A DNA stretch of 64,000 bases, from NCBI RefSeq assembly GCF_000027125.1, contig NC_017626.1. One strand, written 5' to 3'. Within the stretch, counting starts at the first letter, position 1. Each line of letters begins with the position of its first letter. The position numbers were made by a program, and so were the translations under genes. The notes under the pieces are model-generated. The model did not search any database. It was not told the origin of the DNA and saw only the letters and a program-made list of their open reading frames with translations. Below, piece after piece: positions 61,415 through 64,000 of this stretch. The stretch comes from Escherichia coli 042. GTDB taxonomy: Bacteria; Pseudomonadota; Gammaproteobacteria; Enterobacterales; Enterobacteriaceae.

Positions 61415-62113
61415 TTAAAATCTGGCACTAACCCCCATCGTATACAGATAGTCGCTATTGTTAGTGGTATTTTCTGCCTGAGATAGCGCCGCATAGGCGG
61501 CAATATTTTGATTGAGCAACATATCAGCGCCTACGGTGACATCCAGCCAGTTGCCGTTCTGGTTTGTCGCCGTCATCCGGCTCAGGCCTGATTGCGCCTT
61601 CCAGATATTCTCGCCAAATTGCTGGTTATAGCTGATTTGCGCCCAGGGTCGGAGATCGCCAAGCCGGGAGTCAACACGCCAGCCTAAGGTACTCACGCTG
61701 GCATGCCATAACGGATCGGCCAGCGTGGTAGTACTGTCGCCAAACTCGTTATACATCGAGGTGGTTGTGCCATCGTAATGTAATGCCGCGACCGGGCCGG
61801 TTGTAACCTGCTCATATAAAGGAAAATTCCAGCCCATACTCATACTGCTGGTCACATCCACAGGGGTTTCTTCCGCCAGATTGACTTCCAGTCCCAGCGC
61901 CCTTTGGCTACTTTGAATACGTTGCGACAAAATATCGTTGTAATCAGGTTGATGATCGCTATCCCAGGTGTAACGCTCTGTGGAATGTCCGGGTTGCGTA
62001 TCAACGATATATTCTTGTTGCCAGGCGTAAGCTGTGTTGAGAAAAAAGGCACTGATTACCACGCTCACCAGCAGGCTTAGCTGCCAGCGACCACCGCTTT
62101 TTTTTATGATCAT
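61415..62113 (-). CDS. yhjY: Outer-membrane beta-barrel (autotransporter-domain-like) protein YhjY
   Basis: ORF 61415..62119 begins at a GTG; the ATG at 62111-62113 gives 232 aa (MIIKKSGGRWQLSLLVSVVISAFFLNTAYA...), signal peptide, C-terminal aromatic residue. Confidence 0.85.
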   Translation of the reverse strand: MIIKKSGGRWQLSLLVSVVISAFFLNTAYAWQQEYIVDTQPGHSTERYTWDSDHQPDYNDILSQRIQSSQRALGLEVNLAEETPVDVTSSMSMGWNFPLYEQVTTGPVAALHYDGTTTSMYNEFGDSTTTLADPLWHASVSTLGWRVDSRLGDLRPWAQISYNQQFGENIWKAQSGLSRMTATNQNGNWLDVTVGADMLLNQNIAAYAALSQAENTTNNSDYLYTMGVSARF

Positions 62114-62270
62114 TAACACGACTCCAGGGAAGAGCCGAATTCGGCAATATTATTGTCATTGTATGAAGGATATCGGGCATAGTAGCCCTGTATTAAATAT
62201 TGACTTTTTCACCGATGCGTCAAGAAAAGCGGCTGAAATTTTTACGATCGGGTACATAGCGAGGGAAAGT

Positions 62271-62834
62271 ATGGAACGTTGCGGCTGGGTGAGTCAGGAC
62301 CCGCTTTATATTGCCTACCATGATAATGAATGGGGCGTGCCTGAAACTGACAGTAAAAAACTGTTCGAAATGATCTGCCTTGAAGGGCAGCAGGCTGGAT
62401 TATCGTGGATCACCGTCCTCAAAAAACGCGAAAACTATCGCGCCAGCTTTCATCAGTTCGATCCGGTGAAGGTGGCTGCAATGCAGGAAGAGGATGTCGA
62501 AAGACTGGTACAGGACGCCGGGATTATCCGCCATCGCGGGAAAATTCAGGCAATTATTGGTAATGCGCGGGCGTACCTGCAAATGGAACAGAACGGCGAA
62601 CCGTTTGCCGACTTTGTCTGGTCGTTTGTCAATCATCAACCACAGGTGACACAAGCCACAACGTTGAGCGAAATCCCTACATCTACGCCCGCCTCCGACG
62701 CTCTATCTAAAGCCCTGAAAAAGCGTGGTTTTAAGTTTGTTGGTACCACAATCTGTTACTCCTTTATGCAGGCATGTGGGCTGGTGAATGATCATGTGGT
62801 TGGCTGCTGTTGCTATCCGGGAAATAAACCATGA
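62271..62834 (+). CDS. tag: 3-methyladenine DNA glycosylase I
   Basis: ORF 62034..62834 trimmed to the ATG at 62271 (MERCGWVSQDPLYIAYHDNEWGVPETDSKKLFEMICLEGQQAGLSWITVL...), preceded by GAGGGAAAG; 187 aa. Confidence 0.94.
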   Translation: MERCGWVSQDPLYIAYHDNEWGVPETDSKKLFEMICLEGQQAGLSWITVLKKRENYRASFHQFDPVKVAAMQEEDVERLVQDAGIIRHRGKIQAIIGNARAYLQMEQNGEPFADFVWSFVNHQPQVTQATTLSEIPTSTPASDALSKALKKRGFKFVGTTICYSFMQACGLVNDHVVGCCCYPGNKP

Positions 62835-63271
62835 TTCGGGAAGCGCAACGTTCAGAACTCCCCGCGATCCTCGAACTGTGGCTGGAAAGTACAACCTGGG
62901 GGCATCCCTTTATAAAAGCGAATTACTGGCGTGATTGCATTCCGCTGGTGCGGGATGCCTATCTTGCCAACGCGCAAAACTGGGTCTGGGAAGAAGACGG
63001 TAAGCTTCTCGGTTTTGTCAGCATTATGGAAGGCCGATTTCTGGCTGCAATGTTTGTCGCACCGAAGGCCGTCAGACGCGGTATTGGTAAGGCGCTAATG
63101 CAGTATGTGCAGCAGCGCCATCCCCATCTGATGCTGGAGGTTTATCAAAAAAATCAACCGGCGATAGATTTTTACCATGCGCAGGGTTTTCACATTGTCG
63201 ACTGCGCATGGCAGGATGAAACCCAACTACCCACCTGGATTATGAGCTGGCCGGTGGTTCAAACGCTGTAA
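62831..63271 (+). CDS. yiaC: GNAT-family N-acetyltransferase YiaC
   Basis: 146-aa ORF overlapping the tag stop by 4 nt; GNAT acetyl-CoA-binding motif (RRGIGKALMQY). Confidence 0.9.
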   Translation: MIREAQRSELPAILELWLESTTWGHPFIKANYWRDCIPLVRDAYLANAQNWVWEEDGKLLGFVSIMEGRFLAAMFVAPKAVRRGIGKALMQYVQQRHPHLMLEVYQKNQPAIDFYHAQGFHIVDCAWQDETQLPTWIMSWPVVQTL

Positions 63272-64000
63272 GTGTCAGTTCCGGACCGTTGTATTTTTCT
63301 AGCCATGCCAAAGCCGTGTTGCCTGCACAACCATTCCCCAGCCGCGAGCTGGGGAGGTCTTTAGTCAATACATTCACTGCGCCGTTTTTACAAATGCCGT
63401 CAGCGGTTAAATCCAGATCCGGCCATGCCCCTTCGTGAATACAAATCACGCCAGGTTTAATTCCCTCGCTAATGACTGCCCCGGCAAGAATTTGCCCGCG
63501 TGCGTTCCACAGCCGAACAGTATCGCCATCTTGTATGCCGCGCGCCTGAGCATCGTCAGGATGAATGGTGACAGGCTCACGATTTGCCACCGCGTACAAT
63601 TCGCGCAGAGAACTGTAATTCAGCTGGCTGTGCAGACGATGTGCCGGATGAGCAGAAAGTACCTGCAACTGTTCCGGTTCGGCATTGCCCTGCCATTCGT
63701 CCGGCTCCAGCCACATTGGATGCCCAGGGCAATCCGGATAAGCGTAATCGGCAATACGCTGCGAGAAGATTTCAATCTTGCCGCTGGCGGTTTTTAATGG
63801 ATGCGCCTGCGGATCGCGGCGAAAATCGGCGAAGCGAATAAACCGCTCGCTGTCCGGGTTTTCCGGCATCTCAATTAACTGGTTGGCTTGCCAGAACTCA
63901 GCAAATGGCGGCAATTCAACCTGCTGGCTTGCCCCGCGCTGCCGGGCAACGTTATAAAACGTTTCCAGCCATTGCAGCTCACTTTTTCCTTCCGTAAACC
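63240..64000 (-). CDS. bisC: Biotin sulfoxide reductase BisC (molybdopterin oxidoreductase), C-terminal part only; gene continues beyond the window end
   Basis: Minus-strand frame encodes the C-terminal domain of a DMSO-reductase-family enzyme (…PDDAQARGIQDGDTVRLWNARGQILAGAVISEGIKPGVICIHEGAWPDLD…). The ORF-track Met at 63914 is internal, and the frame is open to position 64000. Confidence 0.85.
   Translation of the reverse strand, partial: FTEGKSELQWLETFYNVARQRGASQQVELPPFAEFWQANQLIEMPENPDSERFIRFADFRRDPQAHPLKTASGKIEIFSQRIADYAYPDCPGHPMWLEPDEWQGNAEPEQLQVLSAHPAHRLHSQLNYSSLRELYAVANREPVTIHPDDAQARGIQDGDTVRLWNARGQILAGAVISEGIKPGVICIHEGAWPDLDLTADGICKNGAVNVLTKDLPSSRLGNGCAGNTALAWLEKYNGPELTLTAFEPPASS

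Follow-up and report, generated by a model that had tools for sequence, protein, structure and literature searches.

The convergent genes yiaC and bisC of Escherichia coli 042 share the last 32 nt of their coding sequences. This overlap is genuine and ancient, and it is probably locked in, with antisense pairing of the two transcripts as a by-product rather than as a dedicated regulatory device. The DNA analyzed was a stretch of 64,000 nt from contig NC_017626.1, referred to here as the window, and positions are those of the window unless K-12 coordinates are given. The yiaC-bisC overlap is already known: it is present in the reference annotation and in catalogues of RNA overlaps, and both an RNA duplex from it and Rho termination nearby have been published. 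The value of the present analysis is modest and lies in a clean worked example of a tail-to-tail overlap becoming locked in, in which each of two conserved protein ends fixes the degenerate sites of the other and one stop codon moves by changes that are silent in the partner. The locus would be of greater interest if reciprocal regulation of BisC versus Tag/YiaC were true.

Organization of the yiaC-bisC junction

The junction involves tag and yiaC on the + strand and bisC on the - strand, with the following features.

62271..62834, + strand: tag coding sequence (3-methyladenine DNA glycosylase I), with a translation corresponding to the 187-aa Tag protein (K-12 and RefSeq annotation)
62831..63271, + strand: yiaC coding sequence, 146-aa GNAT lysine acetyltransferase (ORF list, Pfam GNAT, homology to the YjaB structure, AF2, annotation)
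63269-63271, + strand: yiaC stop codon TAA (ORF list)
63240..64000, - strand: 3' part of the bisC coding sequence (biotin sulfoxide reductase, a molybdopterin enzyme; ORF, Pfam Molydop_binding, alignment, annotation)
63242-63240, - strand: bisC stop codon TAA, the reverse complement of TTA (ORF list)
63240..63271, both strands: 32-nt yiaC/bisC dual-coding overlap (ORF coordinates)

The bisC reading frame extends past the end of the window. The original prediction placed the yiaC stop (63271) 32 nt inside the 3' end of bisC on the opposite strand, and this was borne out by the ORF coordinates and by independent annotation. The same 32-nt overlap was found in K-12 MG1655 (yiaC, 3713652..3714092; bisC, 3714061..3716394) and is also annotated in a RefSeq PGAP genome. 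When a 51-nt probe spanning the junction was compared with 5426 complete E. coli genomes, 5420 matched, and the matches carry the annotation of both genes. The region 62000-64000 of the window is 97% identical to K-12 MG1655 and 98.5 to 98.7% identical to the best complete E. coli genome. As derived from the coordinates, yiaC codon positions 1/2/3 face bisC codon positions 1/3/2.

At the other end of yiaC, the tag stop codon TGA and the yiaC start codon ATG share 4 nt on the same strand (ATGA, 62831-62834), which suggests translational coupling. This 4-nt overlap and the tag-yiaC operon, with tag as the upstream gene, have been described, and the lysine acetyltransferase activity of YiaC has been published (PMC6199490).

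Both stop codons lie within the true coding sequence of the partner gene

The last 252 residues of BisC aligned with solved DMSO/TMAO reductases (E = 1e-57 to 1e-73; Pfam match Molydop_binding) to within 2 to 3 residues of their C termini. The alignment with the R. sphaeroides DMSO reductase reached residue 778 of 780 (VTVFDTPK aligned with LTAFEPPA), and tail alignments revealed conservation of the BisC tail in 71 orthologous loci. Alignment had been proposed in the original prediction as a check of the bisC stop, which it sustained; the circumstance named there as overturning the overlap, a true bisC stop further upstream, does not hold, since the BisC tail aligns to the C termini of solved homologs.

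A second, BisC-like paralog of approximately 62% identity was observed in Citrobacter and Trabulsiella (loci L075-L082), where it has no yiaC neighbor. The tail of these paralogs is of unchanged length (...KLTAFDEPAIVTL), and a canonical intrinsic terminator, consisting of a hairpin and a T-run, is located directly 3' of the stop. Because the paralogs without yiaC keep an equal tail length, the BisC tail is ancestral and not an extension.

YiaC matched Pfam GNAT families and is homologous to the YjaB structure 2kcw. An AF2 model based on 50 orthologs gave a predicted structure with a pLDDT of 95.6, in which two C-terminal elements were distinguished.

63227..63250 (codons), + strand: final beta-strand of YiaC, residues 133-140, LPTWIMSW (AF2 secondary structure)
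63251..63268, + strand: six-codon C-terminal tail of YiaC, PVVQTL (AF2, tail alignments)

Residues P134, T135, W136, M138 and W140 of the final strand were invariant in the 50 orthologs. The codons for I137-M138-S139-W140 (63239-63250) face the bisC stop and the three last BisC codons, so at least 11 nt of the overlap are structurally required by both proteins. The following tail is encoded antisense to LTAFDPPA, the conserved motif at the BisC C terminus. In most genera, the YiaC tail reads QADQTP(xx), and PVVQTL is found in the window strain. The last 6-residue block was predicted with low confidence (mean pLDDT, 63), and in the model the tail is probably disordered. A YiaC variant of 193 aa (protein P0004; 11 member sequences, E. 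coli) is frameshifted directly after ...TWIMSW. It points to an indel within the overlap in a few strains, in which case the BisC tail should change too; the variant could reflect mutation or assembly error. Searching for YiaC homologs outside the bisC context revealed none among the 120 best matches listed. These were 143, 146 or 148 aa long, as are the orthologs, or were fragments or variants, and the named organisms among them were all Enterobacteriaceae except for one "unidentified bacterial endosymbiont."

Both stop codons are thus real, and each lies inside the true coding sequence of its partner. An annotation or sequencing artefact, in which the true bisC (or yiaC) stop is located upstream and there is no real overlap, is extremely improbable. 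Long convergent overlaps (>60 nt) often stem from misannotated 3' extensions (PMC2478687), but here the BisC tail has its homologs at the very C terminus of solved family members and is conserved in 71 loci, and the last structural strand of YiaC is already 11 nt into bisC. Moreover, the junction is identical in 5420 genomes, and its degenerate sites carry the dual-coding constraint described below.

Conservation of the overlap in Enterobacteriaceae

For a comparative scan, the BisC C terminus was compared with one genome per species, and the best 80 of 99 loci were kept. Of these 80 loci, 73 carried yiaC and 71 were interpretable. The genera covered were Escherichia, Citrobacter, Salmonella, Klebsiella, Raoultella, Enterobacter, Kosakonia, Kluyvera, Leclercia, Lelliottia, Trabulsiella, Cedecea, Shimwellia and others. 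The convergent yiaC-bisC overlap was kept in all 71 interpretable loci among the best 80 of 99. Its length was 32 nt in 29 loci, 38 nt in 37 loci and 23 nt in 5 loci; the phase is constant, because 23, 32 and 38 all leave a remainder of 2 when divided by 3.

The bisC stop was fixed in all 71 loci, and the yiaC stop alone shifted, by synonymous or conservative changes in bisC. The Leu codon of the BisC motif LTAFDPP has bases in common with the yiaC codon at 63269-63271. Where this Leu is encoded by CTT or CTC, yiaC reads TAA or TGA and the overlap is 32 nt; where it is encoded by CTG or CTA, yiaC reads Ser or Leu and the next stop follows 6 nt on, giving the 38-nt overlap. In Kluyvera, an Asp-to-Asn change in BisC replaces CAA (Gln) by the stop TAA in yiaC and produces the 23-nt overlap. 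The fifth 23-nt locus, from Shimwellia (L070), has Thr at this BisC Asp position. The position of the yiaC stop thus behaves as a passenger of sequence change in bisC.

Apparent overlaps of 361 and -189 nt were observed in Trabulsiella odontotermitis strain 01 (L060) and Citrobacter amalonaticus AUH_CA_2023_1 (L073), respectively. These were the only yiaC-bearing loci without the standard overlap among the 73, and one reading frame appears to be disrupted in them. They are probably frameshifts, pseudogenes or assembly errors.

The 32-nt length is in itself unremarkable by chance, because a few further sense codons are expected before a stop in the antisense frame once the last structural yiaC codons face the bisC stop. 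What exceeds the chance expectation is the retention of the overlap in every one of the 71 interpretable loci, which represent many enterobacterial genera. The distribution indicates that the yiaC-bisC arrangement would predate the radiation of the sampled Enterobacteriaceae. Such deep conservation is also expected under selection for antisense pairing, and the data fit either passive retention or selection.

Dual-coding constraint in the shared segment

The entropy of third codon positions inside and outside the overlap was compared in 72 distinct sequences by the Mann-Whitney test. It was 0.55 bits inside versus 1.25 bits outside for bisC (p = 2e-4), 0.15 versus 1.11 bits for yiaC (p = 3e-5), and 0.67 (n = 5) versus 1.36 bits (n = 40) for 4-fold degenerate BisC codons with a conserved amino acid (p = 0.001), with p values that are optimistic and indicative only, because the sites are few (9 or 5) and the sequences are related by descent. 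Site 63249, which faces the middle base of the YiaC Trp140 codon, was the only invariant one among the 45 4-fold BisC sites. The direction of the entropy drop and the site-by-site logic are nevertheless clear.

These observations are consistent with a simple model of how the arrangement is maintained. The codons of the YiaC TWIMSW strand face the bisC stop and the three final BisC codons, which leaves no spacer between the genes, and the YiaC tail is then read from the antisense of BisC LTAFDPPA until a chance stop is reached. With yiaC positions 1 and 3 opposite bisC positions 1 and 2, and position 2 of yiaC opposite the wobble position of bisC, sites that would otherwise be free in one gene are frozen by the other. 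The arrangement probably persists across Enterobacteriaceae because the genes freeze each other and their separation would need duplication of the shared segment. Within this frame, the yiaC stop drifts among three positions by changes that are silent or conservative in bisC.

Transcripts and RNA pairing at the junction

Because yiaC and bisC have no intergenic spacer, neither transcription unit can end before entering the other gene. The statement of the original prediction that the two mRNAs are antisense at their 3' ends thus follows logically, and it is further supported by published RNA data, namely, the MG1655 excludome (PMC12288877) and a duplex at 63239-63259 (PMC7373196). A scan of 62000-64000 revealed no terminator-like site on the - strand past the bisC stop. 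A bidirectional intrinsic terminator was not found between the stops; the sole nearby hairpin on the + strand lies inside bisC and has a weak T-run. The Rfam scan of 62000-64000 at E <= 1 revealed no RNA family.

The RNA evidence was obtained in all cases from K-12 and not from the window strain. The yiaC-bisC pair is among the 165 convergent excludons detected by ExcludonFinder in at least 50% of 58 MG1655 RNA-seq sets (PMC12288877), under a transcript-overlap criterion that any CDS overlap passes almost by definition. A p19-captured 21-bp duplex annotated as "bisC yiaC" (AUUAUGAGCUGGCCGGUGGUU / CCACCGGCCAGCUCAUAAUCC) was reported by Huang et al. (PMC7373196 Table S3). Its abundance was 184 and 90 reads, corresponding to 2.2 and 1.1 RPM, in a data set with a listing threshold of 1 RPM, a level attained by 87% of genes (PMC7373196). 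The duplex was mapped onto the window as follows.

sense 63239-63259, antisense 63237-63257: RNase III-cut 21-bp duplex with 2-nt overhangs (PMC7373196 Table S3)

The mapped duplex falls essentially within the 32-nt overlap. Overhangs of 2 nt are typical of RNase III. A second p19-captured 21-bp RNase III duplex is annotated to the interior of bisC (K-12 U00096.2, 3713191-3713212; 3.1 and 2.0 RPM). It is located approximately 1.1 kb upstream of the bisC stop, beyond the end of the window, and implies antisense RNA deep in bisC.

A BCM-sensitive region of termination by Rho has been mapped to K-12 position 3714344, on the + strand and in antisense orientation to bisC (Rho score, 7.3; p = 5.5e-14; Adams et al., PMC7815308 Supplementary file 2). 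Such a location is typical of Rho at work on untranslated RNA beyond a stop codon. By coordinate mapping, this peak lies approximately 252 nt past the yiaC stop, at about position 63523 of the window, a location that is imprecise given the 800-nt windows used. The curated Term-seq tables of the same study contain no 3' end entered for yiaC or bisC. The RNA ended by Rho is presumably the tag-yiaC mRNA, given a published table that lists strand and position only, and the corresponding feature is as follows.

63272..63523 (end approximate), + strand: putative untranslated 3' extension of tag-yiaC, antisense to bisC (Rho peak, PMC7815308)

On these grounds, the true RNA overlap probably spans a few hundred nucleotides. 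Termination on the + strand about 250 nt past the yiaC stop resembles the Rho-dependent termination of antisense read-through in E. coli. Unlike spurious antisense RNA ended by Rho, the RNA concerned here is presumably an operon mRNA at its normal 3' end, where no space is left for a terminator of its own.

The pair also resembles convergent excludons, being opposite-strand neighbors with overlapping transcripts that are listed in the MG1655 excludome and yield an RNase III-cut duplex. It differs from them in that the overlap is coding, which makes transcript overlap unavoidable rather than a matter of regulated read-through. Reciprocal expression is the defining feature of excludons, and the assignment of yiaC-bisC to this class rests on the published transcript overlap and duplex. 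A selected convergent excludon, in which polymerase collision and RNase III cleavage make tag-yiaC and bisC mutually exclusive and the arrangement is conserved for that reason, is unlikely. It would account for the place of the pair in the excludome, for a duplex lying exactly in the overlap and for retention of the overlap in 71 loci, and synteny is higher for excludon pairs as a class. However, the duplex, at about 1 to 2 RPM, is near the listing threshold that most genes reach, the excludome criterion is passed automatically by every CDS overlap, the dual-coding constraint alone accounts for the conservation, and the overlap length varies (23, 32 or 38 nt). Furthermore, the literature search found no study dedicated to yiaC-bisC and no reciprocal-expression experiment on the pair.

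According to the published data, transcription of the + strand past yiaC runs approximately 250 nt into antisense bisC before being stopped by Rho, and the overlapping RNAs pair at a low level and are cut by RNase III. The proposal of the original prediction that the overlap could couple the expression of yiaC and bisC is speculative. Under the preferred reading of a locked-in overlap, we infer that any effect on expression would be a mild mutual antagonism arising as a by-product, rather than a selected or positive coupling.

Comparison with other convergent overlaps

In E. coli, 58 convergent overlaps have been counted, and phase (123:132) is the most frequent one (49%) among convergent overlaps of 5 nt or more (Lillo and Krakauer, PMC2174442). 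Convergent pairs made up 7% of overlaps between well-characterized genes in 338 genomes, and most putatively real long convergent overlaps were kept only in very close species (PMC2478687). The yiaC-bisC overlap corresponds to prokaryotic convergent overlaps in being short (tens of nucleotides), in its phase (123:132), in the location of each stop inside the partner coding sequence and in its retention in related species. Real genes, genuine stops, conservation in other species and a dual-coding signature, the last at few sites, were all found for this pair. It is conserved more deeply than many prokaryotic convergent pairs; otherwise there is no essential difference, and yiaC-bisC is an ordinary member of the class of short convergent overlaps.

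Hairpins within bisC and yiaC

The terminator-like scan detected one element on the + strand inside bisC.

63334-63356, + strand: GC-rich stem-loop in the bisC coding sequence, 63 nt beyond the yiaC stop and with a weak T-run 3' of it (terminator-like scan)

The stem-loop folds with -17.6 kcal/mol (z = -3.05). In 59 distinct sequences, standard pairs occupied 87% of cells, a count that is inflated because the structure was taken from the window. The pairs of the stem connect third codon positions of bisC. One of them covaries as CG/GC/UA at two synonymous sites, and a rare Pro codon CCC is retained in the stem. Outside the overlap, low entropy at 4-fold sites was confined to two positions, of which 63339 is one. 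In Klebsiella and Raoultella, the stem is disrupted. The element could act as a weak terminator or as a stabilizer of the tag-yiaC 3' end, or it could be a structure of the bisC mRNA.

A stronger reading of this element, in which an intrinsic terminator at 63334-63356 inside bisC ends the tag-yiaC RNA and selection keeps an RNA overlap of about 120 nt short, is fairly unlikely. The match in the scan, the stable fold, the extent of pairing with its compensatory CG/GC/UA exchange, the retained Pro codon and the low entropy at 63339 argue for it, but the T-run is weak (TCTTTAGTC) and the stem is disrupted in the two genera named above. In addition, PMC7815308 lists no Term-seq 3' end for either gene, and the + strand RNA ends in a Rho-dependent manner further downstream. 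The stem may equally form in the bisC mRNA, and the derivation of the structure from the window inflates the pairing counts. An extension of the excludon reading to the Enterobacteriaceae would make BisC (methionine/biotin sulfoxide repair) and Tag-YiaC (DNA alkylation repair and lysine acetyltransferase) exclusive, with the stem-loop at 63334-63356 and Rho tuning the reach of the antisense RNA; this is very unlikely.

A perfect 10-bp inverted repeat (CCATGCGCAG...CTGCGCATGG) was observed at 63176-63212, within yiaC and, read on the - strand, shortly after the bisC stop, and it folds as a hairpin in - strand RNA. It was rejected as a stabilizer of the bisC 3' end: K-12 has two mismatches in it, and the repeat follows the conserved YHA/AW codons, to which it is probably incidental.
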